Positions 33,506-52,246 of a stretch of DNA of 64,000 nucleotides are shown one piece after another; the first letter of the stretch is position 1; each line of letters starts with the position of its first letter. The notes beneath the pieces are model-generated. The model made no database searches, had not been told where the DNA came from, and saw nothing but the letters and a program-made list of their open reading frames with translations. The DNA is from Escherichia coli 042 (GTDB lineage Bacteria > Pseudomonadota > Gammaproteobacteria > Enterobacterales > Enterobacteriaceae). The stretch lies in NCBI RefSeq assembly GCF_000027125.1, contig NC_017627.1, one strand, 5' to 3'. The translations under genes were made by a program, and so were the position numbers.

Positions 33506-33625
33506 TTTCAATTTTTAACGTGGCATTAACCACGTAATTAATATAACCTTTATGCGGTTAATTGTCATCAAATTGAACCAGATCAAAATCCTGTTATTTG
33601 AAGCAAATCAACTTTTAATTCTTTT

Positions 33626-34009: not shown

Positions 34010-34430
34010 ATGTATACCTCTTTATTTTCTTATCGAATCAAATTTATTTCACATATAAAAAAATGACAATTCATCGATGAATCGAATCGTGACGCAAGTT
34101 ACGAAAATTACGATTCATGCAGCAAATCACATCACGAATTGAATCTAGAGTCAATTCGCTTTAACTCGTTGTTTTATTATTACTGATTCATCTATGAGTT
34201 GCGTTAAATTCATTGGTGAATCATATGCGATTCACCAATGAATCCTTTTTATAATGTAAAATAAATTAAAATACATTATTTAAAACATAAGTTAATGATT
34301 CAAATAGCAAATCAGCAAAAACTTGTTTTTGCGTGGGGTGTGGTGCTTTTGGTGGTGAGAACCACCAACCTGTTGAGCCTTTTTGTGGAGTGGGTTAAAT
34401 TATTTACGGATAAAGTCACCAGAGGTGGAA
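34010..34430 (+). promoter_or_regulatory. oriT: oriT (origin of transfer); nic site predicted between 34341 and 34342 on the plus strand
   Basis: F-type nic motif GTGGGGTGT/GGTGCTTTT at 34333-34350 between traM and orf169; AT-rich region 34020-34300. Confidence 0.85.
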
Positions 34431-34432
34431 AA

Positions 34433-34942
34433 ATGAAAAAATGGATGTTAGCAATCTGCCTGATGTTTATAAATGGGATCTGCGAAGCCGCCGATTGCTT
34501 TGATCTTGCAGGTCGGGATTACAAAATAGACCCGGATTTACTGAGAGCGATATCATGGAAAGAATCCCGTTACCGGGTTAATGCCATCGGTATTAATCCG
34601 GTAACGGGATATGGCAGCGGACTGATGCAGGTAGATTCCCAGCATTTTAACGAACTGGCCCGCTATGGAATTAAGCCGGAACATCTGACAACAGATCCCT
34701 GCATGAACATTTATACCGGTGCTTATTATCTGGCAATAGCCTTTAAAAAATGGGGCGTCTCCTGGGAGGCCGTTGGTGCATACAATGCCGGATTCAGGAA
34801 GACCGAACGCCAGAACCAGAGACGTCTTACCTACGCATCAGAGGTTTACCGGATTTATACCTGGATAAAGAGCAGTAAAGGCATCCGGGTTCCGACCACG
34901 AAGAAATCACTTTCCCAAATTAACAGTGTGCAGAACAATTAA
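34433..34942 (+). CDS. Orf169 / gene X lytic transglycosylase-like leading-region protein
   Basis: 169 aa from [19 protein letters not shown]; soluble lytic transglycosylase-like [10 protein letters not shown]...GLMQV. Confidence 0.9.
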
Positions 34943-35200
34943 TATTGTATACATTGTCAAATACCGGTTATGCCGCGACAGCGGCATGGAAGGCCACACA
35001 CAAAAATATCATATGAGTGATAATGCTGACTGGCCGAAGCCCCGCAAAGCGGGACCCCATCTTATATATATCCGGTAACTGCACAGCCTCCTGCCAGACC
35101 ATTTTTCGCGGGCACAATATTTACAGACTACCGAAAAGCCAGTTGATGAAATTGAGGCATATCAGACGACACAGCAATGCCGCAGGATGATAATATAAGT

Positions 35201-35228
35201 AAAGCCCCGAAAAATTTTTCGGGGCTTT
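35201..35228. terminator. Bidirectional hairpin terminator between convergent orf169 and the yubP-like gene
   Basis: aaagccccgaaaaatttttcggggcttt. Confidence 0.5.
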
Positions 35229-35238
35229 ACTTATATTA

Positions 35239-36060
35239 TCATGACTTCCACTCCCTGAACTGTTCGGCAATCATCCATAATGCTTTGTTGATTCGGATAT
35301 CACCGTCAATGCCTGTAATGGCTCTTGTTCTGGTATTTTTACCGGAGGCACTTCGCCCCGATAATCCACCTTTTATCATATTCTCCTGAACCCGCTGCCA
35401 AGTTGTCCAGAGATCGTTCTGTTTATCCTCCCAACGGCGGGGAGTAATTATTTGTTCTGGCGTCACTGGCGTTTTATTTTCATCTTCGTACCTAGCCATC
35501 AATGCAGCTCTGCCAAATAAATGTTGTTCGTCACTGTTAAGATGTATCTCTTTCATTGTCTCCATATTTTCAGTGACTTTATCAAAGACACCGAGCACTT
35601 CATACGCTCCCTCAATAACCTGCCCGACAATATCACCTTTATGTGGAACGCGGATTTCGCCAAAATTATTCCCACACACCAGGCCATTTGTGCAGACAAA
35701 ACGAAAAATTCCTGGGATCATCTGATAACTGGATGAACCATCATGTGAATTAAGCAGGATAATTTCAGGAACTTCTTTCCCGTTAATATGCCCTTCCCTG
35801 CGAAGACGTAACATATGTTTACTGTATTCGCGGCGTCCCAAATCACGAACCCGACTCTGACAGGCAAAGAACGGCTGGAAACCTTCATCACGTAACTTAT
35901 TGATGATATTGATGGTTGGGATATATGTATAACGCTCACTCCGGGATTCATGTTTATCACCAGAAAAGACAGATGGAACAAACTGCATTAATTCGTCATC
36001 CGTTAACGGGCGCTCACGGCGAATAGAATTATATCGACCAAAACGGGAAGCTAATCGCAT
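35239..36060 (-). CDS. Conserved leading-region protein (YubP-like, 273 aa)
   Basis: 273 aa ORF next to orf169; family assignment from memory of F leading-region gene order. Confidence 0.7.
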   Translation of the reverse strand: MRLASRFGRYNSIRRERPLTDDELMQFVPSVFSGDKHESRSERYTYIPTINIINKLRDEGFQPFFACQSRVRDLGRREYSKHMLRLRREGHINGKEVPEIILLNSHDGSSSYQMIPGIFRFVCTNGLVCGNNFGEIRVPHKGDIVGQVIEGAYEVLGVFDKVTENMETMKEIHLNSDEQHLFGRAALMARYEDENKTPVTPEQIITPRRWEDKQNDLWTTWQRVQENMIKGGLSGRSASGKNTRTRAITGIDGDIRINKALWMIAEQFREWKS

Positions 36061-36170
36061 AACAGTAACTCCTTTATGAAGGCATAAAATTAATAAAATT
36101 TTTTTCGCTTAATATCATCCCCCCTCGGTTATCGTTAACAAAAAGACAACAATTCCGAGGGGAAGGACCA

Positions 36171-36467
36171 TCAAATCAGGTCAGTTCGGGACTGACCAAC
36201 CTGCCGAGTGAAAAGCAGTAACAGCGCGATCAACTCATCAGCGTTTTTTCTGACAAGAGGAGTATGATTCTCCAGGCTATCCAGTAAGTCATGCAGCTCA
36301 TTATTGACCTGATGGAGCACCTTAAAGAGTGCACCAGAATCCCGGCAGCTCTGATATGCAAGATTTGCCTGAACAGCACGATTCTGCATGATCCCGATTT
36401 GTGCGATTGCGTCTTTCTGCTGATCGCCTGTTGGCTGATAAGTGGTGTTAAAAGAAAATGCGCTCAT
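36171..36467 (-). CDS. Hypothetical leading-region protein (98 aa)
   Basis: ORF immediately downstream of Frpo-like repeat A. Confidence 0.45.
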   Translation of the reverse strand: MSAFSFNTTYQPTGDQQKDAIAQIGIMQNRAVQANLAYQSCRDSGALFKVLHQVNNELHDLLDSLENHTPLVRKNADELIALLLLFTRQVGQSRTDLI

Positions 36468-36483
36468 AATTCCTCCTGTATCT

Positions 36484-36944
36484 GATGTTTTCAGCCCCCA
36501 TCATCTGTTGAGTTTCGGGAGCCGCGGTTTTGACGTTTTGCGGGGACCTGCCTTTTGTTCCCTCCGGTATTCACCATCACCTGTTTGAGAACCTTCGCCG
36601 CAAGGGGCATCACTGCCACGGCCTGACGCACCTGTCCTGGGCAGAACGCAAAATTTTTTACCGGGTTTTAGGTAAAAAATTTTGTGGTCTGTTCATTTAC
36701 CCTGGACAGTCAGTGCGGCAGGTTGTGGCTGTATCAGCCCCCGGCGACAGGGGCTTAAACAGGTGAATGGCACCGGACACAACAACGGGCAGGGACCCGC
36801 CGCAACGACGTGAAGCGCGGTTTGCGAAACGGCGTTGCGCCTTACATCCCGGCGGCCTTTTGCCGGGATGCCAGGAGCGCAGGCCACGGCGCGACAGAGG
36901 CGGCGCGACCGGAACGGTCGCTGCAAGCCCGGGGTTTCGCGTCA
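36484..36944. repeat. Frpo-like repeat A (putative single-stranded DNA promoter element)
   Basis: Near-identical to 42053-42506 and 45451-45900; internal palindromes such as aaaattttttaccgggttttaggtaaaaaatttt. Confidence 0.7.
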
Positions 36945-37316
36945 GGGATGGAAGCCCGCCAGGGGGACGCCCGGAAAAGACACTGCCAGGAGAACAACAA
37001 AACAGACAATAATCAGGGCAGCAGTAATCAGAGTCAGAACAGGAGGAAAAAGAGAATAATCAAAGGGAAGGTGATGTGATTTCTGACAGGTCATAAACAG
37101 AGAAGGCGGGGGAAAAGAACGGGCGCCGCAGGCGCGCGTTCTTCCCCGTTCCCGGAGGGAAACGGCCTTCCTGGCAGTCTGGTTGTTCATGCCCGCACAA
37201 TGCCAGCAAGGAGAAAGGGGCCACCGGCGAACCAGCAGCCCCTTTATAAAGGCGCTTCAGTGCAGTCAGACCAGCATCATCCCTGAAAAGGCGGGCCTGC
37301 GCCCGCCTCCAGGTTG

Positions 37317-37478
37317 CTACTTACCGCCGGATTCGTAAGCCATTGTTGCCGTAACTTCCCTGTATCCGTCCTTCAGCCGGACTTCGCACAGACGATTCCG
37401 GGTCAGGAATGTGAATATCAACAACGTGCAGCACACGATTAATACGCACCAGATAAGGGCGTTTCCCGGTAGTTTCAT
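37317..37478 (-). CDS. hok: Hok/Gef-family membrane toxin (flmA/hok-like)
   Basis: 53 aa [53 protein letters not shown] with AGGAGGAG SD; not in the supplied ORF track because it is nested in the mok-like frame. Confidence 0.85.
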
Positions 37479-37536
37479 GGTTTACTCCTCCTTGCAATTT
37501 GCACGGTAAGAGGCCATACTGACGTGGACTAGACAT
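37321..37536 (-). CDS. mok: Mok-like overlapping reading frame
   Basis: 71-aa ORF overlapping hok in another frame. Confidence 0.45.
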
Positions 37537-37560
37537 GCAGAGGCCTCGTGGGTTAATGAA
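37485..37560 (+). ncRNA. sok: Sok-like antisense RNA (approximate)
   Basis: Plus-strand promoter-like ttgcaa-17 bp-catact opposite the mok start; ends not determined. Confidence 0.3.
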
Positions 37561-37685
37561 AAATTAACTACGGGGCTTTTGTCCTTCTGCCACACGACAC
37601 GGTAACAAACCACCTTCACGTCATGAGGCAGAAAGCCTCAAGCGCCGGGCACATCATAGCCCATATACCTGCGCACTGACCACAC

Positions 37686-38033
37686 TCACTTTCCCTGAAA
37701 ATAATCCGGTCGTTCAGCCAGTTCACGGGCTATCAGTTCATCCGCAAACAGTGGTGCATGCCTGTTGATACGTTTCTCCAGATTCCGCCGTCGTACCGCA
37801 GCCTTACGTTCTTCGCTCCAGCGGCGCACCGGGCGGTCAGAAATAAAATCCAGACAGACCGCATACCCTGCTCCGGCAACCCAGCGTGACATAACGGATG
37901 CCGGTGCAGGCTGCCCCGCCTCCACCACTTCTGAAACCAGTTCATGCTCGCCAGGACAGGGATAAGGCAGTTTCCAGCGCAGTGAGTAACGCCACTTCAC
38001 GCCGCCTCCCGGAGTTTGTTCGGCACCATCCAT
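37686..38033 (-). CDS. Hypothetical ORF overlapping the 3-prime end of psiA
   Basis: 115-aa GC-rich ORF; may be non-coding hok mRNA leader. Confidence 0.25.
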   Translation of the reverse strand: MDGAEQTPGGGVKWRYSLRWKLPYPCPGEHELVSEVVEAGQPAPASVMSRWVAGAGYAVCLDFISDRPVRRWSEERKAAVRRRNLEKRINRHAPLFADELIARELAERPDYFQGK

Positions 38034-38716
38034 CGCTCCATCTCACGGACGGCATGACCGGCCTCCCTTGCCGCCATACCAGCCTCTGCGATGACCTGCC
38101 AGAACGGCATATCCTGCCACTGCCAGCGTTCCATTCCGGCCAGTGACGGGAAACGCTCGCCCCACTGCCAGAACAGGGTTTCCAGGTCATGCTCTGCCAC
38201 CCGGTCACTCCAGCGTGCATGCCAGCTTCCAACTGTTTCCGGCGAATGGAATGCCAGTTCGACTTCAGCCTGAGCGACCAGCGCCTGGTACGCACGGGCT
38301 TTCTGCTCTGCCTCCCGTGCCTGCTGGCGGCTGTACTTCTGCATGACCAGCGCGGATTTATGGCGACTGCGCTCCCTGACGCGGAACCGCACCGACGGAA
38401 ACAACCGCTCTGCTGCATCACCGGGAAGGGGAAGGAGGCAGACCTCGCCCTGTGTTTCAATCAGCACATCGACGGCATACAGCCACTGAAGACGGCTGCC
38501 GTGCAGTTCTTCTGCGGTCAGGGATGGCATGAAAAATCGCAGGTCAGACAGCGAAATCCTGCGGCTTCCGTTCAGACAGCGGAAAAACGCTCCCGCATAC
38601 GGATATTCCGCCAGCGTGTTTCCCTGATGGCGGCGTTTTTCCGTCTCCGCCACCGCCCGCCATGCGGCCTGTTGCTCTGCGCTGAGGGGAACCAGTGTCT
38701 GTGATCGTGCGCTCAT
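37997..38716 (-). CDS. psiA: PsiA
   Basis: 239 aa [32 protein letters not shown]..., matches F PsiA from memory. Confidence 0.95.
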
Positions 38717-39147
38717 GCCTGACCTCCTTCCGCCATCAGGATATGAATGATGTCGTTAACGCTGTACCCCTGCGCATCCAGTGACGCCGCCAGTGCCAGT
38801 GAATGGCTGACAGCTTCCGGTGCAAACCGCCGCTGCACCTGAACCACCGCAAACGGCTCACCACCGGCATTCACCAGAACCAGCACCCAGACCTGAGAGA
38901 CATCGCCCGGTGAACATAACGCCAGGTGAAAACATTCGTGGGCAGGCGTGAAACGGACCTGGACGGGGAAAAATCCACCAAACTCGCTGCCGTACTCGCC
39001 GTTCATCGTCCAGTTGTCCGGCGCATCCAGTTCCCGCATCACGGCGTGTGTCAGCTCACGACGTTCATCACTTCCGGCAGCCCGGATATCTTCATATTCC
39101 TGTGCGCTCATGGTCTGTAATACATTCAGGGTCAGTTCAGTTTTCAT
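38713..39147 (-). CDS. psiB: PsiB anti-SOS (RecA-inhibiting) protein
   Basis: 144 aa [40 protein letters not shown]... Confidence 0.95.
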
Positions 39148-39201
39148 CACAGTATCTCCCTTGCTGCCGCCCCGTCTCCGGCGGGGCGGTGTGGTTGTTC
39201 A

Positions 39202-41160
39202 TCAGGCGGCATCAGCCAGGTTATCGGTGCGTTCAGTGGCATCTGTCTGTGGATGTGGTGCACACATCCAGCCTGGAACCCAGCGGTTGTCTTTCATATT
39301 GTGCTCTGCATGTTCAGCCGCATCACCTTTCTTCATCTTCTCCGCGTCCCGTGCGGCACCGGACAGCCCTGCCTCATTCAGGGCTGCGATAATCTGCGGC
39401 TTTTTCAGGTGTCCGAAGAAGTTTGCTTTTGTCGGCTGCCACCAGTCACGCATGTGAAAGCCGATGGCGCTTTCCAGCGAGTCAAGCGGACTGCGTGACG
39501 TGTGACCACACTCGCGGGTCTGAACGCCGTGGATGCTGCACGCGGTACAGAAGCTGAGCAGGGATAACAGCACCTCCTGGCTGAGTGACAGGAACGTCGT
39601 CATATCCCGTTCCCATCCTTCCGGCAGCAGGGCAGCAAAACGAGAGTGTTCTGCCATCAGCGCCATGAATGCGGCACCTTCCTTCCCCGACGGTGCATCG
39701 CTGGTCAGCGCATAATGCTCACATTCCAGGCGAATTCTGGCGGGACTACTATGCGCTTTGCTGCCAAACACATTCAGGCAGAGCGTCCATGCCAGCAGTG
39801 TCAGGGATTTGTCCGGTTGCTGCATCAGTGCCGCCTGGACTGCCAGCGTGCGTTCGGAAGACATTTTCGTCAGCAGTGGCAGACTGATTTCCTCCACTGA
39901 CGCTTTTTCCTGCACCTGTTCCGTGCGGTCAGCGTCGTCAGCCGCATCATCCTCACTGCGTAACTGCACACCACGCTGGACACATACGTTTCCATAACGC
40001 CAGGACACCACCACTCCACCTCCGGCACGCATCTCCGGCGTCCACGCTCTGACCTTCGCCATGCAGCGCATCAGCTTCATTTCTGCTTCCAGCAGGTCAG
40101 ATTCCTCACACTGATTTTCCAGCGCGTCGTAACGCGTCATCAGTTCGTTCAGACGTTCTTCTTCCGCCTCCGTCAGCACCGCTTCCGGCTCCGGCAGACA
40201 GCGGTATGTTCCGGCATCCTCACGGCACTCACCGACAGGCTCCATGCGTCCGGCGCACCATCCCCAGCCTTCGGCTTCCCGAAGGAACTCTGCAACAGCC
40301 TGGAGTTTTTCCAGCAGGGCGGCATCGAGCGCAACACAGTCCACATAGCCACCCTCGTCGTCGCTGAACAAATCAGTGCGCAGTTCATCTGGCGAGAAGG
40401 CATCAGCCCCCACAAAGCGGAATTTACTGTTCCCCGCCACCGCCACTTCACTTTCGGTCACCAGACGACGAATGGTCTGTACTTCCGGTTTACCGCCCCA
40501 TCCCGACTGGCAGGCGGCTTCAAACACCTGCACCTGACGCGCGGTGTCGTTCTCCAGCGCCAGCGCCTGACAGTGCTCTGTGGTGATGCGGTCTTCTGCC
40601 AGCGCATCGAGGATGACAGGCGCAAGGTCTGCCAGTTTCAGCATTCGCTGAACGTGGCGGGGCGAATAGCCCAGCAAATCACCGATTTGTGCAGGCGTTT
40701 TGCCTTCCTGCGCCATCGCACGGAATCCGGCAATCTGTTCGGCAGGGTGCATATCCCGACGATGACCGTTTTCAGTCATTGATGCAGCCGTCGCCAGCTC
40801 CTGCGGAATAACCTTCACGCGTACAGGCCAGTCAGCCGGAATGATGCCACGCTCTGCCAGCATGTTGAGTGCTGCCAGTCGGCGACCACCTGCGGCGACA
40901 CCGTAACGGTCACCAGGCAGGGTATGCACGACCAGATTCTGCAACAGGCCAACGCCCTTAATGGACTCCGCCAGTTCGCTGACGGACTCTGCGGAATACG
41001 GCACAGTGCGCACATTCAGCGGTGATTTAATCAGTGAAGCCAGCGGCACACTCACTTCCTCCGTCTGCGCCAGCAGGGCAGACAGGACTGTTTCCTGCGT
41101 TTTTGCATATTTACGGCTTGCTTTGCGGGTGGTTTCTGGTTCACACTTCGTTACAGGCAT
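39202..41160 (-). CDS. ParB-like nuclease-domain leading-region protein (652 aa)
   Basis: N-terminal ParB/Srx-like region LQNLVVHTLPGDRYGVAAGGRRLAA; conserved position between ssb and psiB. Confidence 0.85.
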   Translation of the reverse strand: MPVTKCEPETTRKASRKYAKTQETVLSALLAQTEEVSVPLASLIKSPLNVRTVPYSAESVSELAESIKGVGLLQNLVVHTLPGDRYGVAAGGRRLAALNMLAERGIIPADWPVRVKVIPQELATAASMTENGHRRDMHPAEQIAGFRAMAQEGKTPAQIGDLLGYSPRHVQRMLKLADLAPVILDALAEDRITTEHCQALALENDTARQVQVFEAACQSGWGGKPEVQTIRRLVTESEVAVAGNSKFRFVGADAFSPDELRTDLFSDDEGGYVDCVALDAALLEKLQAVAEFLREAEGWGWCAGRMEPVGECREDAGTYRCLPEPEAVLTEAEEERLNELMTRYDALENQCEESDLLEAEMKLMRCMAKVRAWTPEMRAGGGVVVSWRYGNVCVQRGVQLRSEDDAADDADRTEQVQEKASVEEISLPLLTKMSSERTLAVQAALMQQPDKSLTLLAWTLCLNVFGSKAHSSPARIRLECEHYALTSDAPSGKEGAAFMALMAEHSRFAALLPEGWERDMTTFLSLSQEVLLSLLSFCTACSIHGVQTRECGHTSRSPLDSLESAIGFHMRDWWQPTKANFFGHLKKPQIIAALNEAGLSGAARDAEKMKKGDAAEHAEHNMKDNRWVPGWMCAPHPQTDATERTDNLADAA

Positions 41161-41218
41161 AATCATCCCCTTATAATTGCTTATGTCCTGCCGGACGTTC
41201 GCGCGTCCGGCACCTCTC

Positions 41219-41452
41219 TTACTTAAGAATGCCGAAATTCCGGATGACATGGTTCATCCAGTACCCGGCACCGTCCTCAAAATTCCAGGTACGCCAGACC
41301 AGGCCACTGTTATTGCGGACAACCAGGCGAAAATGCGTTCCCTGATCATCCTCGATAAAGACATTCCGGTACTGTGCGGCAACGGCTTCAGCCTGTTCGC
41401 GGGTAAAGGAGCCGTCAGGCAGCCCCTGAAATATTCTGAAATATTCGCTCAT
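41219..41452 (-). CDS. Small conserved leading-region protein (YubL-like)
   Basis: 77 aa from [10 protein letters not shown]..., between ssb and the ParB-like gene. Confidence 0.5.
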
Positions 41453-41507
41453 CCTCATCTCTCCGGTGATGCCCCGCACTGGACGGGGCGGTTGTCACTG
41501 TCTTAGT

Positions 41508-42035
41508 TCAGAACGGAATGTCGTCATCGAAGTCATACGCGGGTTCAGACGGCTGCTGAGGCTCGGGCTGCGCGGCCTTACGTCCACGGCCTTTCGTTTT
41601 CGCGCCACCTTTTTTCAGTTCCGGCTGTGATTCCGGCTGAGGCTGACCGCTGAACTGTTGCGCCTCTTCCGGCTGAGTCTGAGTACCTGCGGCACGTCCC
41701 AGCATCTGCATGGTGCCCGTGGTCTTAACAAGAATTTCGGTGACGTAACGGGTGATACCGTTATCCTCCCAGCTACGGGTGCGAAGCTGACCTTCGATGT
41801 AGACCTGCGCGCCCTTGCGCAGATACTCACCAGCCACTTCCGCGAGCTTGCCGAACAGCACCACGCGATGCCATTCTGTCTGCTCCCGCATCTCCCCCGT
41901 CTGTTTGTCACGCCAGCTTTCTGACGTGGCCACCTGCAGGTTTGCCACTGCGCCCCCGTTGGGGATGTAACGGATTTCCGGATCTTTTCCCAGACGACCG
42001 ACAAGAATGACCTTGTTAATGCCACGAACTGCCAT
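41508..42035 (-). CDS. ssb: Plasmid single-stranded DNA-binding protein
   Basis: 175 aa from [23 protein letters not shown]..., acidic tail DFDDDIPF. Confidence 0.95.
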
Positions 42036-42052
42036 GATGTGTCTCCTTCTGT

Positions 42053-42690
42053 TGATGTTTTCAGCCCCCATCATCTGTTGAGTTTCGGGAGCCGCGGTTT
42101 TGACGTTTTGCGGGGACCTGCCTTTTGTTCCCTCCGGTATTCACCATCACCTGTTTGAGAACCTTCGCCGCAAGGGGCATCACTGCCACGGCCTGACGCA
42201 CCTGTCCTGGGCAGAACGCAAAATTTTTTACCGGGTTTTGGGTAAAAAATTTTGTGGGCTGTTCATTTACCCTGGACAGTCAGTGCGGCAGGTTGTGGCT
42301 GTATCAGCCCCCGGCGACAGGGGCTTAAACAGGTGAATGGCACCGGACAGAACAACGGGCAGGGACCCGCCGCAACGACGTGAAGCGCGGTTTGCGAAAC
42401 GGCGTTGCGCCTTACATCCTGGCGGCCTTTTGCCGGGATGCCGGGAGCGCAGGCCACGGCGCGACAGAGGCGGCGCGACCGGAACGGTCGCTGCAAGCCC
42501 GGGGTTTTCACGCATCGGACCGTAGCGACAGCCCGAAACCGCGCCAGCGGGTTCGGCGGAGACTGGCGGGTGCGCCAGCAGCTGCCTGTCGGAGTCGGGC
42601 CTGACGACCGGATGCCGCCAGGCAGCCGGGAGCCGAAGGTGCGCCCGGCAGACAGGACAACACTGCAGTAGTCAGAATCAGAGCGGCAGG
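42053..42690. repeat. Frpo-like repeat B, immediately upstream of ssb
   Basis: Near-identical to repeat A over about 450 bp and to repeat C over about 600 bp. Confidence 0.7.
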
Positions 42691-42700
42691 AAAAAGAAGA

Positions 42701-42784
<84 letters not shown>

Positions 42785-42961
42785 ACAACAACATCATCAG
42801 TAACAGACAAATGACAGGTCTGAAAAGACAGAAGCCCCCATCAGAACGTCCGCGTAATGAAAGGGGCGGCGCGTGAGCGCGGCCCCTTTCAGCGCCACCG
42901 GCGCGCGGTCTTTTCCCGGCGCGGACAGACGGGCATTTATCCTCCCGCCAGCCCTGTGTCA

Positions 42962-43525
42962 TCAGGCACGCAAACGAATAATCATCGTCGGGACATCGGT
43001 ATAAGCAAACGTGCCGCGCGGCAGCTCCTCGCGGATGTCAGAAAACGGTAACAGCTTCTCCTGCTGGCGCGGCCCGTTCAGACAGACGGCAACCAGCACG
43101 CCCCCCGGACGCAACAGGGAAAAAGCCCGCAGGATATGCCGGATATCCTGCCCGTGGATGAACGGCGGATTCATAATGATCCGGCTGTAATACTGCACCG
43201 GCTGCCATTCCATGAAGTCGCCACACTGTACCCTGACACCGTTAAAATTTTCCCGCAGATACCGGACCAGCCCGCTGTTAATCTCCACCGCATCACACAT
43301 GGCCTCCGGCGCGGTATCCCGAATCGCCCGCAGTATGGCCCCGGTGCCGGCAGAGGGTTCCAGAATGTGATCACGGTTGCTGATTTCCGCCAGCGTCACC
43401 AGGCGATCACAGACCGGGGCAGGACTCACAAAAAGCTGAGATTCAGCCCGGATTTCAGCAACCGGCGCGGCGTTATCCAGCCTTGCGCGCATCAGCCGGA
43501 TACGTTCTCTTAACTGACTGTGCAT
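42962..43525 (-). CDS. Small orphan SAM-dependent N6-adenine DNA methyltransferase-like protein
   Basis: 187 aa; motif I-like EPSAGTGAI followed by NPPF (motif IV); no adjacent restriction gene. Confidence 0.75.
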   Translation of the reverse strand: MHSQLRERIRLMRARLDNAAPVAEIRAESQLFVSPAPVCDRLVTLAEISNRDHILEPSAGTGAILRAIRDTAPEAMCDAVEINSGLVRYLRENFNGVRVQCGDFMEWQPVQYYSRIIMNPPFIHGQDIRHILRAFSLLRPGGVLVAVCLNGPRQQEKLLPFSDIREELPRGTFAYTDVPTMIIRLRA

Positions 43526-43571
43526 GTCATTATCTCCGTCATCCCCCGGGGATTTCCCGGGGGGATATACC

Positions 43572-44933
43572 TTATTTCTGTGGGATTTCCGTGATTTTCA
43601 TGTCGGTAATATACACATTCACCAGGCGGAAATTATTGTCCATTGTGCGGCGGTAGCGGTATGCCCCGTGGTCTTCTGTCTCTGCCACACTGCGCACGGC
43701 CTTACAGTCCCGGGGCAGGGCGGCCCACTGCGCCTTTGTCATTTCCCGGAAACCTTCCCCCGGATAGTTGACTACCGGCGGACGCTTCGCGGCCTGACTG
43801 GCGACGGCAGCCTCTTCTGCCGATGGTGCTTTGTAGTCCGTGATGCGATCGGGCGTCACTTTCATCGTGCCGCTGTACCCGAGAAAACTGTAATTTGGCG
43901 TTGTGACTGAACTCACCGCCCCGTTGCTTTTGTTCACGCGGATGATGGTCAGCCACTCGCCCCGGCTGAAAACCTGTCCGCCCGGCTCAAAATCCTGTGT
44001 CCGGGTAACCACGCCGCCGCTTTCGTCCAGCATGGCACGCTCATAGATCAGGCGGTTCTGATAGTGGTTAACCCAGCGTTGCTGATGCTGAATCTGCCGT
44101 TCATGACAGCGGATCGCAATTTCGCGGGCCTGCTCCGTGGTGATGATGTCATCATCCAGGGCCGACCATAACGATCGACTTCCTTCATACTGGCTTTTTT
44201 CTGCCGGGCGCGGATACCTGTCCAGCGGGAAACAGGCGCTGATATGGTCATGACTGCTGATGAGTTTTGCCATATTCAGATCCAGCGATTCAGCCCGCCA
44301 CATCGTCAGATATTTCTGCGACTGTGCGATGGTCTTTTCCGCCTTGCGCAAATCAGCTTCGATTTTTTTGATACGACGCCAGCGAACGTCCGGACGTTCT
44401 TTATACTTCGCGTGAAGCAGTGCCGACCGCGCCCGCTCTTCCCAGTATTCCGCACGTTCAAAGAGCATCACAGCACGTTTCATACCGTTTTCAATACGCT
44501 GTGCATCACGACGGGCGCGGCGTTCGCTGTGATGCCCCACAAGAATGGGCTGACCGGGCGGGATCATCGCGGCCAGTCTTTCCACTTCATCAAGTGCCTG
44601 TGCGGATTCACTGGCCCGCTTTCCGCTGTATCCGGTAAACCGCTCCGCCCGTGCTTCCTGACGTTCAGCGAGCGTGCTGTCTTCATCCTCAATCTCTCCG
44701 GCAAGTGAGAGGAGCACGTCTTCCCGGCCCGGTGTCCAGGCTGGCGCGACAAACAGCGCCTGTTTGGGTGCCCAGCGAAAACCGGCATCATGCACTTTTT
44801 TATACGTCTCCGGGTCAAGACGTGACGCGGCATACAGGCGCAGTTTGTTGTCATCCGGTGAGTAGGTCGCGCGGTACATCTGCACAGGGCTGGCGGCTTC
44901 CGGGGCGGTCATGGTGATTGCTGCTAATGTCAT
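43572..44933 (-). CDS. Conserved leading-region hypothetical protein (453 aa)
   Basis: Long ORF with charged coiled-coil-like middle region; no catalytic motif recognised. Confidence 0.55.
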   Translation of the reverse strand: MTLAAITMTAPEAASPVQMYRATYSPDDNKLRLYAASRLDPETYKKVHDAGFRWAPKQALFVAPAWTPGREDVLLSLAGEIEDEDSTLAERQEARAERFTGYSGKRASESAQALDEVERLAAMIPPGQPILVGHHSERRARRDAQRIENGMKRAVMLFERAEYWEERARSALLHAKYKERPDVRWRRIKKIEADLRKAEKTIAQSQKYLTMWRAESLDLNMAKLISSHDHISACFPLDRYPRPAEKSQYEGSRSLWSALDDDIITTEQAREIAIRCHERQIQHQQRWVNHYQNRLIYERAMLDESGGVVTRTQDFEPGGQVFSRGEWLTIIRVNKSNGAVSSVTTPNYSFLGYSGTMKVTPDRITDYKAPSAEEAAVASQAAKRPPVVNYPGEGFREMTKAQWAALPRDCKAVRSVAETEDHGAYRYRRTMDNNFRLVNVYITDMKITEIPQK

Positions 44934-44984
44934 AAAATGTTCTCCTTCCGTCTGTTGCCGCCCCTCGCGGGGCGGCTCACCTCA

Positions 44985-45215
44985 TCAGTTAAAAGCGCGT
45001 TTCAGTTCGAGTGTGCGGAGCACCTGCCCGAAAGCCGTATTTTTCATGGCGGGGATGTGTACACCACGTCCCCGGTGAAAACTCCGGGCAATGTGTCGCC
45101 CGAAGGCTTTCAGCACGGGGTCAATTTCCGGCGCGGGGATGTCTTCGCGTCTGAAACGGGGATGACGGCGGGGCTTTACAGCCGCTGCGGAAGGTGAAAC
45201 AATACTTACTGTCAT
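44985..45215 (-). CDS. Small hypothetical protein (76 aa)
   Basis: First ORF downstream of Frpo-like repeat C. Confidence 0.3.
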   Translation of the reverse strand: MTVSIVSPSAAAVKPRRHPRFRREDIPAPEIDPVLKAFGRHIARSFHRGRGVHIPAMKNTAFGQVLRTLELKRAFN

Positions 45216-45450
45216 AAATGCATCCTTATGACTGTTGACTGGAGCCGCAAAAACTGTTCGTGCAGTCTCTGCAGCATGGATTAAGCAGGTTCCTGACCTG
45301 CTTTTTTCATATCTGCATCTGACGCTTTCCGGTGTTTTCCTCCTTCTGTTCCTGCGTTCTCATTACCTGCCAGCCGGATGACTGACAGAACACATAAATG
45401 CGTATTGCCGGAGCCTGAAATAAATCCTGATTTTTAAAGAACATCACCCG

Positions 45451-46060
45451 TTGAGTTTCGGGAGCCGCGGTTTTGACGTTTCGCGGGAACCTGCTGCTGT
45501 ATTCCCTGTGGTATGAACTTCACCCGTTTGAGAACCTTCGCCGCAAGGGGCATCACTGCCACGGCCTGACGCACCTGTCCTGGGCAGAACGCAAAATTTT
45601 TTACCGGGTTTTGGGTAAAAATTTTTGTGGGTTGTTCATTTACCCTGGACAGTCAGTGCGGCAGGTTGTGGCTGTATCAGCCCCCGGCGACAGGGACTCA
45701 TACGGGTGTGTGGCACCCGGCAGGCAATGAGCAGGGGCCCGCTGCAACGACGAAGAGCGCGTGCGCGAAACGGCGTTGCGCCTTACATTCCGGCGGCCTT
45801 TTGCCGGGATGCCGGGAGCGCAGGCCACGGCGCGACAGAGGCGGCGCGACCGGAACGGTCGCTGCAAGCCGGGGGTTTTCACGCATCGGACCGTAGCGAC
45901 AGCCCGAAACCGCGCCAGCGGGTTCGGCGGAGACTGGCGGGTGCGCCAGCAGCTGCCTGTCGGAGTCGGGCCTGACGACCGGATGCCGCCAGGCAGCCGG
46001 GAGCCGAAGGTGCGTCCGGCAGACAGAACAACACTGCAGTAGTCAGAATCAGAGCAGCAG
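45451..46060. repeat. Frpo-like repeat C
   Basis: Shares about 600 bp with repeat B including the tail ...cactgcagtagtcagaatcagag. Confidence 0.7.
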
Positions 46061-46247
46061 ATAAAGGAACAACAACATCAGGAACAGTTCCATAACATAA
46101 GAAAGAAACACTCCTGAGTCAGACACATCACAGACGGGAAGGGTAACGGGCGACGCGCCAGCGTGGCCCGCTTCCCTTCCGGCAGGCGTCAGCCTGCCAG
46201 GGGTTTTCGCGCGGGCTGACAGGCGGCCTCCACCGCCTGCCCCTGTA

Positions 46248-46439
46248 TCACCTGTTTCTGCTGCCCTGTAAGATGTAGTGACCGCCCAGGAAAACCGCCT
46301 GCTGATTCGCCACAAAATCGCAGATTTCATCAACAATCTGCGCGGTGGTGAGCGGTTTCTGCCCCATTTCACGACGCCGCGCATTAATCACGGCCCTGTA
46401 ATTACGCAGAATTTCGCGGGTTTCCGTGCTGATATTCAT
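46248..46439 (-). CDS. Small hypothetical protein (63 aa)
   Basis: ORF overlapping the stop of the upstream gene by 4 bp (operon-like). Confidence 0.35.
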   Translation of the reverse strand: MNISTETREILRNYRAVINARRREMGQKPLTTAQIVDEICDFVANQQAVFLGGHYILQGSRNR

Positions 46440-46858
46440 GACATCGTCTCCCCGTCCAGCGCCTGCAACACAACGTCCATTGCTTCGCGTTCCTCCCTGA
46501 CGAATGCGTCACCGTCGCCCCCGTTCTCACTCCCGACGGCATACAGGCGCTTCATTTCACTGCCTGCCAGCGCCATCACTTTTTCCAGCATCACCGCCGG
46601 GACTGTCACCTGACGGCTGGCGTGCTTTTCCTCCATCAGTTCACGAACAACGTCGTGAACAACGCTGACATCCGCACCATGCTCAAAGGCATCGTCCAGC
46701 CGCTGCATGACGGTTTCCAGCTCATCGTCTGTCAGACTCCAGTCCTGGGCTATGTGACGCACATCCCCACGAGTCAGCACCACGGCAAAAACGCATTCAC
46801 TGTCCGGCACGTCTGTATCCAGCACTTCGCGGATAATTTCTTTAACAGTACAGTACAT
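46436..46858 (-). CDS. Hypothetical leading-region protein (140 aa), paralog of 48561-48995
   Basis: Shares MY.T...E...RQVTVPA..L pattern with the 144-aa ORF. Confidence 0.5.
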   Translation of the reverse strand: MYCTVKEIIREVLDTDVPDSECVFAVVLTRGDVRHIAQDWSLTDDELETVMQRLDDAFEHGADVSVVHDVVRELMEEKHASRQVTVPAVMLEKVMALAGSEMKRLYAVGSENGGDGDAFVREEREAMDVVLQALDGETMS

Positions 46859-46904
46859 GTTCTCGTCTCCTTTACAGGGGCGGCATTGCCGCCCCGTCCG
46901 TTAA

Positions 46905-47330
46905 TCAGTCCAGCGCCGCATAAATCGCGTTACATTCGGGGTGAAATTCGATGTGGCTCCACAACTGCGCATCGCGCATCCTGTACAGGTGAGTCAGCCC
47001 TGCGCTACCGCTGTCGTGGTACAGCCACAACTGGCGGTTAATCACAAGGGAGGTCAGGATGATGCCTGCGGCATCAGCACTCACGGTACGGTCAAACCAG
47101 TTTTCACCGTTAACCAGATGAAAACGGTCGCCATCCGGCATCATGTAACCGCCACCGTCCGGCAGGCGGATGAAGTGCCAGAATCCGCCTTCATATTCCG
47201 GCATCATTTTTTTCGCCAGCGCGTACACAGATGCCTCGGCATACAGAAAATCCAGGCCAAACAGGTAAGGCAGAAAGGAGAGACGGTCGCACTCTTCAAC
47301 ATTCAGAGTGACAGGTTTCGCATATTGCAT
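46905..47330 (-). CDS. klcA: KlcA/ArdB-family anti-restriction protein
   Basis: 141 aa [25 protein letters not shown]...[21 protein letters not shown] resembling KlcA/ArdB. Confidence 0.8.
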
Positions 47331-47366
47331 GATGTTTTCCTCCGTTGTTCACATATTCCGCGACAC

Positions 47367-47600
47367 CGGGCGGTGCCGTGCCTCCATCTTTGCCGGGCCT
47401 GCAGGGTTGCAAGGGCGCAAGGGAAGCCGCAGCCTGACGCACACGGCTGGCGGGAGTTGGAGGGTGAGACCGCGAAATCTGAGCGGGTGAACGACCGGAA
47501 AATCACGGCAGACGGGAAGGAGGGACCGGGTGACCGCAGCGGTTCACCTTACCTTGCAACCCGCCCGCAGAAGCCCGGCTACGATGGAGGCACGGCACAG
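47367..47600. promoter_or_regulatory. Long imperfect inverted repeat (about 230-nt hairpin) upstream of klcA; candidate ssDNA promoter distinct from the Frpo-like repeats
   Basis: Arms 47367-47415 and 47548-47600 are reverse complements (ccgtgcctccatc / gatggaggcacgg; gggttgcaagg / ccttgcaaccc). Confidence 0.45.
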
Positions 47601-47745
47601 CCCGCACACGACGCTGAGGCCACATAACTGAAAACCCACAAGGCCATGCCCCGCATGGCCGGGTAAAGCGGAGCCTGCGGCGACATCCTTTTGCTCTTTC
47701 CGGGGACCGGCTGGAAAAGGCGGAGATTTTTCCCCGCCAGCGTCA

Positions 47746-48561
47746 TCATTTCCGGATTTTCGCCAGTGCATCCGCCATGCTGCGGATTTCATCCCGTGCC
47801 TCCAGAACAACCTCCCGCAGAATATCCCGGTCAAACCAGCGACGGGACGGTTCATCCGGTATACGCAGCACATCACAGACCAGACCACTGGACAGGATAT
47901 GCTCCACACACTCACTGACCAGATACATTTCCACCGCCGAAAAACGTGCTCCCCGGTTCAGGATAGCATCGAGCACCACGGGCAGATTTTCGTCATCTTC
48001 ATCAAGCCAGCAGGGGTAATCGCTTTCCTTCACAACCAGACGAAAGCGGCGCGTCTGGCGGGTCAGCAACGTCTGACCGGTGGTGGTCAGCGCCGCACGG
48101 ATACGCCGCGCATCTTCTGCCACCCGGCAACTGACACTGCATACTGCATCGCGCACCGCATCAAGAACCGCCCTGATTTCTTCCTCCGTCAGCCATTCAC
48201 CGGCATACGGGAAAGACACCTGCGTTCCGTCTGCCGGAAGTACCGGCAGCGACTGCCACTGACTGCCGGACAGAACAAGTTCCGCTCCGGTTCCGGTCAG
48301 TTTCTGAATGGCAGAGGCCAGGAGCGGCGGCAGTACGCCGCCGTGACGGTTGATAAGTAACGTCGCCAGCCGGGGCGCATCCAGCCGCACGTAAATGCTG
48401 ATCCAGCCCGGATAGTGCGGATTCAGTTGTTCAATATCCGTCTCTTCCGGCCAGCCCTGCGCCAGCAGCAGGTTACGGGCGTGGCGATAAACCAGTGCAT
48501 TCAGCGTTTTGTTCATGATTAATGGTCTCCCTGAATCGCCGCCCGAAAGCGGCGATAACAT
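47746..48561 (-). CDS. Hypothetical leading-region protein (271 aa)
   Basis: ORF contiguous with the upstream 144-aa ORF (stop/start adjacency). Confidence 0.5.
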
Positions 48562-48995
48562 CAGTCGTTTTCGTGTGTGTTGTTTTTCAGCAGGGCGCGG
48601 GCCTGATTAACCACCGCCTGACGGCGGGTGACACATTCCGGGACGGCGAGGCCATGATCCCGGGCGGCCCATTCACGTTTCCACAGTGCCTGTTCGGCGG
48701 TCTGAATCAGGGACGCCAGCAGTTCAGCCGGGACGGTCACCTGGCGGTTTTCTCTCACGTTATTGATGATCTCCATCGCCACGCCGGAAGAAATACCGGA
48801 TTCAGTCCGCTGGTCTTCCGGGATGTCCTCCAGGCGCGCCAGGACAGTCCTGATTTCATGATCGGACAGGGAAATATCCATTCCGTCAGCGAGGGCCTGA
48901 ATTTCTTCCGGGGACCAGATAACCAGCATCAGCGGCGTGTCTCCCGGATACTGCGCTGCCAGCTCCCGGCATAGCGTTTCGCATGTTCCGTACAT
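48561..48995 (-). CDS. Hypothetical leading-region protein (144 aa), paralog of 46436-46858
   Basis: Conserved [10 protein letters not shown] motif and N-terminal MY.TCE. Confidence 0.5.
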
Positions 48996-49008
48996 TCTCG
49001 TCTCCTTC

Positions 49009-49230
49009 TCAATCTTTGAAGCAGGAATCCAGTTCCAGAATTTCGGTATACGCCTCCATGAACAGGCGATTGGCGCGATACAGCGTCTGGCGTGTCAGGC
49101 GTTCAACAAGCACATCGGAATCAAAGCGACAGCGATGCTCCATATCGTTCAGCCTGGCCCGAAGGTCACACATGGTGTTGGCCACCTCCGCCACGTCGGC
49201 GCGAAGTTTTTCGTGTCCGGCATAGTTCAT
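49009..49230 (-). CDS. Small hypothetical protein (73 aa)
   Basis: ORF directly downstream of the methyltransferase gene. Confidence 0.35.
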   Translation of the reverse strand: MNYAGHEKLRADVAEVANTMCDLRARLNDMEHRCRFDSDVLVERLTRQTLYRANRLFMEAYTEILELDSCFKD

Positions 49231-49914
49231 TTACGCAGCCTCCGGTTCAAACCAGTTATCATTCGCGGCCCCCTGCTGCATGGCCCGTTGCACGGCGGCC
49301 AGTCGTTGCTGTCCGGCACGGTGATACTGTTCAAGCAGCTCGATACCGATATACCGGCGTCCGGACTGAAGGGCGGCGACGCAGGTTGAGCCGCTGCCTG
49401 CAAACGGGTCCAGCACAATCGCGTTCGGGTGTGTGAAGCTCTCAATCAGCGGTTGCAGGCTGGTAACGGGCTTTTCAGTCGGGTGATGACGATTGCCTGA
49501 ATATTTCCAGCCCAGCACGTCGGGCAATGGCTTCTGAGGCAGCGCCGGACGTCCTTTTGCCAGGATGTAGGCGCATTCGTGGCGATAGCCCACATATGCG
49601 GCCTTCGATGTGTAGGTTTTGGTAAACACCAGGTGGCCAACCACGCTGAATCCCGCATTTTTCCAGGCGGCCATAAAGCGATCGACGCGGTTCCAGCCAT
49701 AGAAGCTCACCATTAACGCGTCTTTTTTGAGTACGCGGTACATTTCATTACAGGCTGGTTGCAGCCATTCATCGGTTTTATCGCCGGCGATGGTGCGCCC
49801 GGAACGGTCACGGAAACCGACGAGATACGGCGGGTCGGTGAGGATGAAATCGACAGCATTGCCCGGAAACGTGGCCATAACACGCACGCAGTCACCCAGG
49901 ATAAAACGGGACAT
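49231..49914 (-). CDS. Orphan DNA adenine methyltransferase-like protein (beta-class amino-MTase motif order)
   Basis: 227 aa; DPPY motif (ILTDPPYLVGF) N-terminal and FxGxG-type DPFAGSGST C-terminal; no cognate endonuclease nearby. Confidence 0.85.
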   Translation of the reverse strand: MSRFILGDCVRVMATFPGNAVDFILTDPPYLVGFRDRSGRTIAGDKTDEWLQPACNEMYRVLKKDALMVSFYGWNRVDRFMAAWKNAGFSVVGHLVFTKTYTSKAAYVGYRHECAYILAKGRPALPQKPLPDVLGWKYSGNRHHPTEKPVTSLQPLIESFTHPNAIVLDPFAGSGSTCVAALQSGRRYIGIELLEQYHRAGQQRLAAVQRAMQQGAANDNWFEPEAA

Positions 49915-50249
49915 AACAGCACTCCTTCTCTTACAGAGGGCACCGGGAGGGCACCCCTGTGGTGCCCGTTCCCCGCTGCCTGTGGGCTGTTCACCGCGTC
50001 CGGTAACGGGTCAGGCCGACCGTGGAATACCGCAGCCGTCGTCTTTTTGACGGCAAGGCTATGCCGCGAAAGCGGCTTGAAGGGCGTTCATCAGAAAAGG
50101 GCTCCCGGCTGGCGTACACTGTCACCAACGCCAGCCGGGAGCGGTAAAAGCGCCCGTCCCGTGCCCGGCCGGACGCGGGACACTGACCACAGGCAGCGTT
50201 CCTGCCGCGCCGCGTCAGCCGGCGCAGTAAAAAGAGGAGCCCGGCGACA

Positions 50250-50431
50250 TCTTTTGTCACCCGCCAAACAAAACCCAAAAACAACCCACACCCAACCCAA
50301 TAAAACACCAAAACAAGACAAACAATCATTGATTGATGGTTAAAATGGGGTAAACTTGACAAATAAACCCACTTAAAACCCAAAACATACCCAAATACAC
50401 ACCAAAAAAAACACCATAAGGAGTTTTATAA
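50250..50431 (+). promoter_or_regulatory. parC: parC-like centromere/promoter region upstream of parM
   Basis: A/C-rich repeated motifs (aaaccc, acccaa, aaaaca) upstream of the parM RBS. Confidence 0.55.
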
Positions 50432-51394
50432 ATGTTGGTATTCATTGATGACGGTTCAACAAACATCAAACTACAGTGGCAGGAAAGCGACGGAACAATT
50501 AAACAGCACATTAGCCCGAACAGCTTCAAACGCGAGTGGGCAGTCTCTTTTGGTGATAAAAAGGTCTTTAACTACACACTGAACGGCGAACAGTATTCAT
50601 TTGATCCAATCAGCCCGGATGCTGTAGTCACAACCAATATCGCATGGCAATACAGCGACGTTAATGTCGTTGCGGTGCATCACGCCTTACTGACCAGTGG
50701 TCTGCCGGTAAGCGAAGTGGATATTGTTTGCACACTTCCTCTGACAGAGTATTACGACAGGAATAACCAACCCAATACGGAAAATATTGAGCGTAAGAAA
50801 GCAAACTTCCGGAAAAAAATTATATTAAATGGTGGGGATACATTCACAATAAAAGATGTAAAAGTCATGCCTGAATCTATACCAGCAGGTTATGAAGCTC
50901 TACAAGAACTGGATGAGTTAGATTCTTTATTAATTATAGACCTCGGGGGCACCACATTAGATATTTCTCAGGTAATGGGGAAATTATCAGGGATCAGTAA
51001 AATATACGGAGACTCATCTCTTGGTGTATCTCTGGTCACATCTGCAGTAAAAGATGCACTTTCTCTTGCGAGAACAAAAGGAAGTAGCTATCTTGCTGAC
51101 GATATAATTATTCACAGAAAAGACAACAACTATCTGAAGCAACGAATTAATGATGAGAACAAAATATCAATAGTCACCGAAGCAATGAATGAAGCACTTC
51201 GTAAACTTGAGCAACGTGTATTAAATACGCTCAATGAATTTTCTGGTTATACGCATGTTATGGTTATAGGCGGTGGCGCAGAATTAATATGCGATGCAGT
51301 AAAAAAACACACACAGATTCGTGATGAACGTTTTTTCAAAACCAATAACTCTCAATATGATTTAGTTAACGGTATGTATCTCATAGGTAATTAA
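50432..51394 (+). CDS. parM: ParM (StbA) actin-like partition ATPase
   Basis: 320 aa [32 protein letters not shown]..., essentially R1 ParM. Confidence 0.97.
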
Positions 51395-51396
51395 TA

Positions 51397-51747
51397 ATGG
51401 ACAAGCGCAGAACCATTGCCTTCAAACTAAATCCAGATGTAAATCAAACAGATAAAATTGTTTGTGATACACTGGACAGTATCCCGCAAGGGGAACGCAG
51501 CCGCCTTAACCGGGCCGCACTGACGGCAGGTCTGGCCTTATACAGACAAGATCCCAGGGCCCCTTTCCTTTTATGTGAACTGCTGACGAAAGAAACCACA
51601 TTTTCAGATATCGTGAATATATTGAGATCGCTATTTCCAAAAGAGATGGCCGATTTTAATTCTTCAATAGTCACTCAATCCTCTTCACAACAAGAGCAAA
51701 AAAGTAATGAAGAGACCAAAAAAAATGCGATGAAGCTAATAAATTAA
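51397..51747 (+). CDS. parR: ParR (StbB) centromere-binding protein
   Basis: 116 aa MDKRRTIAFKLNPDVNQTDKIV... Confidence 0.95.
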   Translation: MDKRRTIAFKLNPDVNQTDKIVCDTLDSIPQGERSRLNRAALTAGLALYRQDPRAPFLLCELLTKETTFSDIVNILRSLFPKEMADFNSSIVTQSSSQQEQKSNEETKKNAMKLIN

Positions 51748-51762
51748 TTCAATTATTATTGA

Positions 51763-51799
51763 GTTCCCTTTATCCACTATCAGGCTGGATAAAGGGAAC
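51763..51799. terminator. Hairpin terminator after parR
   Basis: gttccctttatcca ctatcaggc tggataaagggaac, perfect 14-bp stem. Confidence 0.5.
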
Positions 51800-51985
51800 T
51801 TAATCAAGTTATTTCATTAGCAATGATCACATAAAATAAATACAGTGTCGTTATTATGAAATTATTTCACGGCACTTATAAAAAACAGTACCAATAATCA
51901 AACCTGGTGAGTTCGCAATGTCTGGCAATAACGTTTTTGATGGGTTGTTTTCCAGCCCGGAGCGCGATATTGCCACCAGTCACAG

Positions 51986-52246
51986 AAACACCGAGAACAC
52001 CAGATTTCAGCGGTCGCTGAATTTGAACGAGATCTTTTACTTGAACGAACTTATTCAGGGATAGCAAGAGCACGGGATGCAGGAAAACGTTTTGGTCGCC
52101 CACCGGTATTAAATGAAGAACAAAAACAGAAGGTGCTCGAACGCATTAAGTCTGGGGCAAGTATAAGTGCTATTGCCAGGGAATTCCGAACCACACGGCA
52201 AACAATTCTGAGAGTTAGAGCGAAACAGCAAACTGTTACTGTATAG
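51986..52246 (+). pseudogene. Serine recombinase (resolvase) C-terminal fragment
   Basis: Translates to ...[59 protein letters not shown]... with no start codon and no N-terminal catalytic domain. Confidence 0.6.

Follow-up and report, generated by a model that had tools for sequence, protein, structure and literature searches.

In this report the window is the whole stretch of DNA that was analysed, 64,000 nucleotides of contig NC_017627.1 from Escherichia coli 042, with positions counted from its first letter and the + strand being the strand as given. The window is that of an F-like (IncF) conjugative plasmid, and the hairpin with which we are concerned is situated in its leading region. 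Rfam recognizes the traJ 5' UTR and FinP at ~33.4 kb, and also sok and CopA; the tra genes run along the - strand. On the + strand, at 34335-34349, lies the F-type nick motif GGGGTGT/GGTGCTTT with 0 mismatches, which we take to be the nick sequence of the F oriT. From the nick motif on the + strand and the tra genes on the - strand it follows that the + strand is the transferred (T) strand. This strand enters the recipient 5' end first from the nick at ~34342, and the leading region extends towards rising coordinates. All leading-region genes are on the - strand; the T strand is therefore their template, klcA included.

The hairpin lies within a gap of 415 nt between ORF 47746-48561 (-) and ORF 46905-47330 (-). 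The latter is the klcA/ardB anti-restriction gene, the first gene downstream of the hairpin, and encodes a protein of 141 aa that matches the Pfam family Antirestrict (PF03230, E = 4e-26) and is 94% identical to YfgB of F; the call rests on Pfam, as NCBIfam holds no model for KlcA or its neighbours. The foot of the stem is 36 nt from the ATG of klcA, directly upstream of klcA/ardB as originally predicted. A Shine-Dalgarno sequence GGAGG (47339-47343, - strand) is read 8 nt before the ATG and is conserved upstream of klcA in pESBL and F. Behind klcA, on the same strand and with tight or overlapping spacing, are a DUF1380-family ORF (46436-46858) and a 63-aa ORF (46248-46439), a segment of 46248-46858 that presumably is co-transcribed with klcA; the order of these three genes is annotated alike in pESBL, F and pChi7122-2. 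On the other side of the hairpin, between it and the upstream operon, the terminator scan found a terminator-like stem-loop followed by a T-run (47637-47655, - strand), which is also kept in the ardA-upstream copy of pESBL. The region around the hairpin is 100% identical to pChi7122-2 (NC_019037.1).

The minimum free energy (MFE) fold of the + strand pairs 47367-47417 (the 5' arm) with 47547-47604 (the 3' arm) and continues as an imperfect rod through an apical part of 130 nt. A repeat search resolves the arms into an outer inverted repeat of 32 nt (47367-47398 / 47573-47604) that is 91% complementary, and an inner perfect pair of 11 nt (47404-47414 / 47552-47562). Pairing of both arms is kept in 21 homologues, and the apical domain (47418-47546, + strand), a G+C-rich extension of the rod formed by consensus helices 5-11, keeps its pairs by way of compensatory changes. 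The original prediction had described an imperfect inverted repeat of ~230 nt with arms at 47367-47415 and 47548-47600, and its ends proved right to within 4 nt. Folded as single-stranded DNA, the + strand of 47340-47640 reaches -77.4 kcal/mol, far below shuffled controls (-58.0 +/- 3.7 kcal/mol; z = -5.2), none of which, out of 100, was as stable. In the same shuffle test the - strand reaches -73.9 kcal/mol (z = -4.9).

To place this fold among its surroundings, we scanned the + strand of the leading region (33000-52000) with DNA parameters in windows of 300 nt at steps of 10 nt, with a threshold of -75 kcal/mol. These settings repeat the published discovery criterion of Wen et al. (PMC12672017), a stem-loop below -75 kcal/mol per 300-nt window. 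The 19 kb scanned hold five clusters below the threshold: three Frpo-like repeats, the klcA hairpin, with -84.2 kcal/mol in its best 300-nt window, and one at 49880-49990. The hairpin had been counted as the fourth of its kind in the region; it is indeed real and stands beside three Frpo-like repeats, but it is not the last, the fifth being upstream of a methyltransferase gene. That it is unrelated in sequence to the Frpo-like repeats, as had also been claimed, agrees with a sensitive BLAST search of 47331-47745 against the whole window, which returned only the query itself and its own inverted arm and matched none of the three copies. Rfam at the gathering threshold gave 11 matches in the window, none of them within 47300-47800.

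The identity of the element becomes apparent by comparison with other plasmids. Over its whole length, the 415-nt intergenic region can be aligned with the region upstream of the antirestriction gene of pESBL-EA11 (NC_018659.1), and likewise with the ardA-upstream region of pESBL-EA11 and the yfgB-upstream region of F (NC_002483.1). By BLAST over 251 nt the hairpin is 87-89% identical to the klcA-upstream copies of F and pESBL, and 86-87% identical to the pESBL-type ardA-upstream copy. The window, pESBL, F and pChi7122-2 also share their gene order here: methyltransferase gene, small ORF, DUF1380 gene, a gene of ~260-270 aa (271 aa in the window), hairpin, klcA, and DUF1380 gene. In pESBL, homology-free mining for hairpins by Wen et al. 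(NAR 2025, PMC12672017) had yielded six, upstream of six early-induced operons, of which three resemble Frpo/ssi (class 1), the pair at klcA and ardA forms class 2, and the one at M.EcoGIX represents class 3. The two class 2 hairpins are alike and without homology to Frpo/ssi; 5' RACE in transconjugants gave the start site of each of the six, the transconjugant-specific induction of the class 2 promoters was seen by RNA-seq, and class 2 and class 3 are conserved in F (PMC12672017). The F copy, called ssp2, drives yfgB, the ArdB homologue (preprint 10.64898/2026.01.09.698686), and the same F element was found independently by a third group and named Frpo3 (bioRxiv 10.1101/2025.04.03.647016). 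We consider it very probable, from this homology, that the klcA hairpin represents, on this plasmid, the class 2 single-stranded DNA (ssDNA) promoter, ssp2/Frpo3. The original suggestion of an ssDNA promoter, independent of Frpo, for early expression of klcA thus gains support from 87-89% identity and synteny to proven elements. The element is already known, its class having been published in December 2025 with preprint work following in 2026, and since the discovery was published in 2025-2026 there is nothing new in kind here.

With the class 2 elements of pESBL and F the window hairpin has in common its sequence, its site 5' of klcA/ardB, the strand that folds, the rod-like fold, and a TAnnnT and a TTGCA box on the 3' arm. 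The class 1 elements (Frpo/ssi; ssi1-3 of ColIb-P9; Frpo1 and Frpo2 of F), three copies of which are in the window, are likewise long T-strand hairpins of the leading region that rebuild a sigma-70 promoter and serve zygotic induction, but they have no detectable sequence similarity to the klcA hairpin, and those of the window carry an A/T-rich tip where the klcA hairpin has a G+C-rich apical rod. Their roles in F differ as well: transcripts from class 1 take part in the priming of conversion, and ssp2 holds conversion back (preprint 10.64898/2026.01.09.698686). Class 3 (ssp3) and the klcA hairpin both fold on the T strand, to below -75 kcal/mol, and both are unrelated to Frpo, but their hairpin sequences differ; ssp3 is reported to be of similar strength, without roadblock activity (preprint 10.64898/2026.01.09.698686).

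The three Frpo-like (class 1) repeats of the window are situated at 36483-37053, 42053-42697 and 45426-46068, measure ~570-645 nt, and fold on the T strand to between -90 and -102 kcal/mol; they lie 5' of ORF 36171-36467 (-), the ssb gene 41508-42074 (-), and ORF 44985-45215 (-), respectively. The class 3 hairpin occupies 49974-50198 on the T strand, 5' of the methyltransferase gene 49231-49914 (-), within a stretch of homology of ~49915-50232. Its arms of 30 nt are 83% complementary and its best 300-nt fold is -100.5 kcal/mol. Apart from scattered mismatches this region is nearly identical to those upstream of M.EcoGIX in pESBL and of the methylase gene in F, and on account of this near-identity we regard 49974-50198 as the published class 3 (ssp3) promoter. 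A RefSeq 'hypothetical protein' overlies the class 3 hairpin in pChi7122-2 and pESBL. The class 2 and class 3 hairpins of the window have a motif of ~30 nt in common (AAAGGATGTCGCCG..GGCTCC..TTTAC), just 5' of them in the coding sense and followed at both loci by a small G+C-rich stem-loop; the ardA-upstream copy of pESBL has the motif too, and its statistical support is modest. The motif is read as AAGGATGTCGCCGCAGGCTCC at 47670-47690 (- strand) and recurs 5' of the class 3 hairpin at ~50242-50262. All three published classes of ssDNA promoter are thus represented in this one window, by five hairpins.

For the evolutionary analysis we assembled 21 distinct copies of the hairpin, down to 62% identity. 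When species-representative genomes were scanned with an apical motif of 19 nt, no more than 11 loci emerged, mostly near-identical enterobacterial plasmid contigs, some of them binned into unrelated metagenome-assembled genomes and two resembling chance matches; the wider diversity was reached through relatives of KlcA. The set includes a plasmid of E. coli strain 0H18 (82% identity), whose nearest relatives are Citrobacter and Salmonella plasmids, and a copy on an Edwardsiella plasmid (76%). In two loci the hairpin is 62-63% identical and KlcA only 65%, and at one of these a further copy precedes a DUF1281 gene. This 62%-identical lineage is represented by E. coli contig ACBJGI010000069.1 (our L026), which has two class 2 copies (L026:505-763 and L026:2215-2475), one 5' of the DUF1281 gene and the other 5' of klcA-ardA. 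Class 2 hairpins evidently head at least three kinds of first gene: klcA, ardA, and DUF1281. Conversely, an Edwardsiella klcA locus beside hipBA has no homologous hairpin; the element therefore goes with the setting of the leading region and not with the klcA gene itself.

The RNAalifold consensus for the T-strand alignment of all 21 copies comprises 54 pairs, at which 98.8% of the cells are standard-paired, and 15 pairs show compensatory changes on both sides. No column shuffle out of 500 reached the observed pairing or covariation, and when the partners were slid by 1-3 columns the pairing fell to 37-42%, with at most 2 pairs changed on both sides. These covariation figures are generous, for the consensus was derived from the very alignment on which it was scored, and the mutual relatedness of the homologues makes the counts overstate the number of independent events; the margin is nevertheless large. 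Between the most distant clade and F the lower stem is the best conserved part (80-87% identical), and the apical part is only 56% identical with its pairs nonetheless kept. As to which strand is under selection, the alignment contains 60 cells with a G.T wobble on the T strand against 3 with A.C, the latter being wobbles on the complement, and the T strand folds more stably than its complement in all 21 copies, by a mean of 7.9 kcal/mol. This asymmetry in wobbles and stability argues for a structure of the transferred DNA and against one of the klcA-sense RNA.

The lower stem carries two promoter-like boxes, both on the 3' arm of the + strand. The -35-like hexamer TTGCAA (47554-47559) is retained in all 21 homologues, as TTGCAT, TTGTAT or TTGCAA, while neighbouring stem positions vary or co-vary. 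The -10-like hexamer TACGAT (47580-47585) lies in an imperfectly paired stretch and conforms in the homologues to TA(A/C)(G/A)(A/G)T, with T1, A2 and T6 invariant in 21 of 21. In the -10 box of sigma-70 promoters it is T1, A2 and T6 that matter most. The segment of the 5' arm facing the -10-like box occurs in six versions (TTTCTA, AAAATA, AAAAGA, ACCAGA, ACCATA and ACAGCA, written 3'->5') and in none of the homologues is it fully complementary to the box. Of the six positions of the sigma-70 consensus each hexamer matches only four, and the boxes are 20 nt apart in the window as against 15 nt in F and pESBL, neither of which is the canonical 17. A consensus scan found no canonical duplex promoter on either strand of 47250-47800, which fits an element active in the folded form only. 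In our tentative assignment TTGCAA would serve as -35 and TACGAT as -10. According to the promoter model, the 5' arm of the T strand would be the template leading into klcA and the 3' arm would stand in for the non-template strand. Counting ~7 nt past the -10-like box and projecting this onto the template arm, we predict the start of transcription near 47379 (47377-47381, - strand), and the resulting 5' UTR of klcA would be ~49 nt long.

The middle of the stem is where the window allele departs from the alleles that have been studied. On its 3' arm the 20 nt between the boxes consist of 14 paired bases plus bulges of 4 nt and 2 nt, whereas 17 copies have a spacing of 15 nt, fully paired in F, and one has 14 nt; the mid-stem of the window type is also found in the copy of Klebsiella ATCC 13883. 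The unpaired mid-stem bases are on the 3' arm in the window, but in F and pESBL they are on the 5' arm, which has ~5 extra bases. The -10-like box of the window, TACGAT, has two separated mismatches (T1 and C3) with A2 paired, whereas that of F and pESBL, TAAGAT, sits on a bubble of 3 nt, and in the copies not of the window type positions 2-4 (2-5 in three of them) are unpaired. We considered and rejected the idea that the window mid-stem is an inverted F-type mid-stem, as resemblance to the complement of the F 3' arm is confined to the 5' arm of the window (22 of 28 positions), and the 3' arm of the window still resembles the F 3' arm itself (24 of 32). Because of these differences from F and pESBL the promoter or roadblock strength of the window allele could differ. 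The allele is clearly maintained: of the 5091 records of complete E. coli genomes with a match, 1147 have their best match, at >= 99% identity, to this allele. There is a small chance, which we rate as rather low, that it behaves unlike the F and pESBL alleles in promoter strength, residual duplex activity or duration of the stall; if it does, natural mid-stem variants would tune the duration of early expression across plasmid lineages.

The sequence of events that we propose is as follows. During conjugation the + strand would enter the recipient first, its 5' end leading from the nick at ~34342, and 47367-47604, while single-stranded, would fold into a rod of ~240 nt. The lower stem would then mimic a duplex promoter in which the 3' arm provides TTGCAA and the partly mismatched TACGAT (TAnnnT) and the 5' arm the template, so that host sigma-70 RNA polymerase could initiate inside the stem and read out into klcA and the two genes behind it. 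With initiation on the single strand, anti-restriction protein would be made before a complementary strand exists. Once the strand has been copied the hairpin would be gone and, the copied strand being without a canonical promoter, expression would stop. As in F, the 3' foot of the hairpin may in addition stall complementary-strand synthesis until UvrD opens the stem. Zygotic induction, start sites, roadblock and UvrD dependence were demonstrated by others on orthologues and are carried over to the window by analogy; the exact start site, use of the hexamers, promoter strength and roadblock activity of the window allele itself are predictions.

The roadblock is documented for F, where complementary-strand synthesis stalls at the end of the ssp2 stem; the stall persists under rifampicin and hence does not depend on transcription, and UvrD relieves it (preprint 10.64898/2026.01.09.698686). 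According to the same preprint (10.64898/2026.01.09.698686), deletion of ssp2 halves the production of PsiB and lowers transfer into EcoKI or EcoGIII recipients; early conversion events amount to ~4% beside yfgB against 24-48% downstream of class 1 promoters, and transcripts from the class 1 promoters contribute to conversion in vivo. The F hairpin keeps the oriT-proximal 13 kb single-stranded for longer, and the counterpart of this segment in the window contains klcA and the three Frpo-type promoters. By analogy, the 3' arm of the hairpin would be the first part met by complementary-strand synthesis.

Other readings of the hairpin were weighed as well. It might in this allele be mainly or only a structural roadblock or a stabilizing fold, with klcA expressed by read-through or later from the duplex. 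The mid-stem unlike that of the tested alleles (20 instead of 15 nt, bulges on the other arm, two mismatches in place of a -10 bubble) and a stall in F that survives rifampicin (preprint 10.64898/2026.01.09.698686) lend this some plausibility, but the window allele has TTGCAA as well as T1, A2 and T6 of the -10-like box, the terminator-like hairpin between the upstream operon and the element speaks against read-through, the consensus scan of 47250-47800 found no promoter for duplex expression, and an allele that is the best match in 1147 of 5091 records is maintained; we hold this reading to be improbable. We give still less credit, and regard as very improbable, an ssi site that recruits primase, primosome or RNA polymerase chiefly for priming of the complementary strand, transcription of klcA being a by-product. 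Frpo was first described as a promoter and source of primer RNA (Masai and Arai 1997, as cited in PMC12672017), and the class 1 transcripts do contribute to conversion (preprint 10.64898/2026.01.09.698686); against this, ssp2 slows conversion in F, and early conversion beside yfgB is the ~4% already mentioned, compared with the 24-48% past class 1.

A structure at the RNA level, that is a 5' UTR regulator, processing site or terminator in the klcA-sense transcript, could be imagined since the complementary strand also folds well (z = -4.9, and ~-134 kcal/mol with RNA parameters). The 60 G.T against 3 A.C wobble cells and the greater stability of the T strand in 21 of 21 copies point the other way, Rfam has no match in 47300-47800, and a start inside the stem would leave the mRNA without the upstream arm, so that the hairpin could not form; we think this exceedingly improbable. 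Finally, a coding role had to be considered, either for a conserved small protein or for additional N-terminal residues of KlcA, as in the 'DUF1472 domain-containing protein' entries: in this G+C-rich region several reading frames, on the one strand as on the other, stay open over long distances, and some public gene calls begin with translated hairpin sequence. No frame, however, is open in register across the homologues, the frame being shifted between window-type and F-type alleles by indels of 4-5 nt inside the arms; the substitutions are compensatory for pairing, and the translated hairpin has no match in Pfam or NCBIfam. A coding function, the alternative that the original prediction had itself named, has next to no probability. 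A class 2 ssDNA promoter remains our preferred reading of the klcA hairpin.

The element is widespread. Of 5426 complete E. coli genomes, 3639 carry it, with 10865 places in total, almost all of them plasmid-borne, and it is found in more than 5000 PLSDB plasmids from at least eight genera, the hosts being Escherichia, Klebsiella, Salmonella, Shigella, Citrobacter, Enterobacter, Raoultella, Edwardsiella and Serratia. Among the E. coli records listed, none of 60 has an annotated feature under the hairpin match, nor does the pChi7122-2 record. Some public gene calls (P0017, P0064 and P0008) give KlcA N-terminal extensions of 40-80 residues that are translations of the hairpin (47503-47625, - strand, in the window), and some of the extended KlcA calls bear the name 'DUF1472 domain-containing protein', a label on database proteins that could not be traced to any current Pfam or NCBIfam model. 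There is here a clear annotation gap: the hairpin goes unannotated, and sometimes is translated as protein by gene callers.

Several other elements of the window deserve mention. A/C-rich direct repeats with a spacing of 11 nt (50270-50421) immediately precede the ParM-like gene 50432-51394 (+) and resemble a parC-type centromere; it is at these repeats that the homology of the leading region with pESBL and F reaches its distal end. Repeats based on the triplet-built units AGCAGT and AGCAGG (42688-42807; eight overlapping copies of 36 nt with a spacing of 12 nt) adjoin the second Frpo-like repeat and overlap small ORFs on the - strand. A perfect palindrome of 56 nt (35187-35242), with arms of 28 nt and no spacer, is situated between oriT-proximal genes and may be a bidirectional terminator. 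Two genes for CopA-like antisense RNA, 58913-59002 (+) and 63839-63928 (-), have opposite orientations and identical scores, and between them are two IS3-type ALIL pseudoknots (60998-61114 and 62237-62353); this arrangement suggests that part of a replicon was duplicated or inverted and now flanks insertion sequences.

For the klcA hairpin, the analysis identifies the transferred strand as the strand under selection. With such an element an incoming plasmid can make anti-restriction protein before it has a second strand, and in F the element also keeps the leading region single-stranded for longer. Both effects aid the establishment of resistance plasmids in new hosts.
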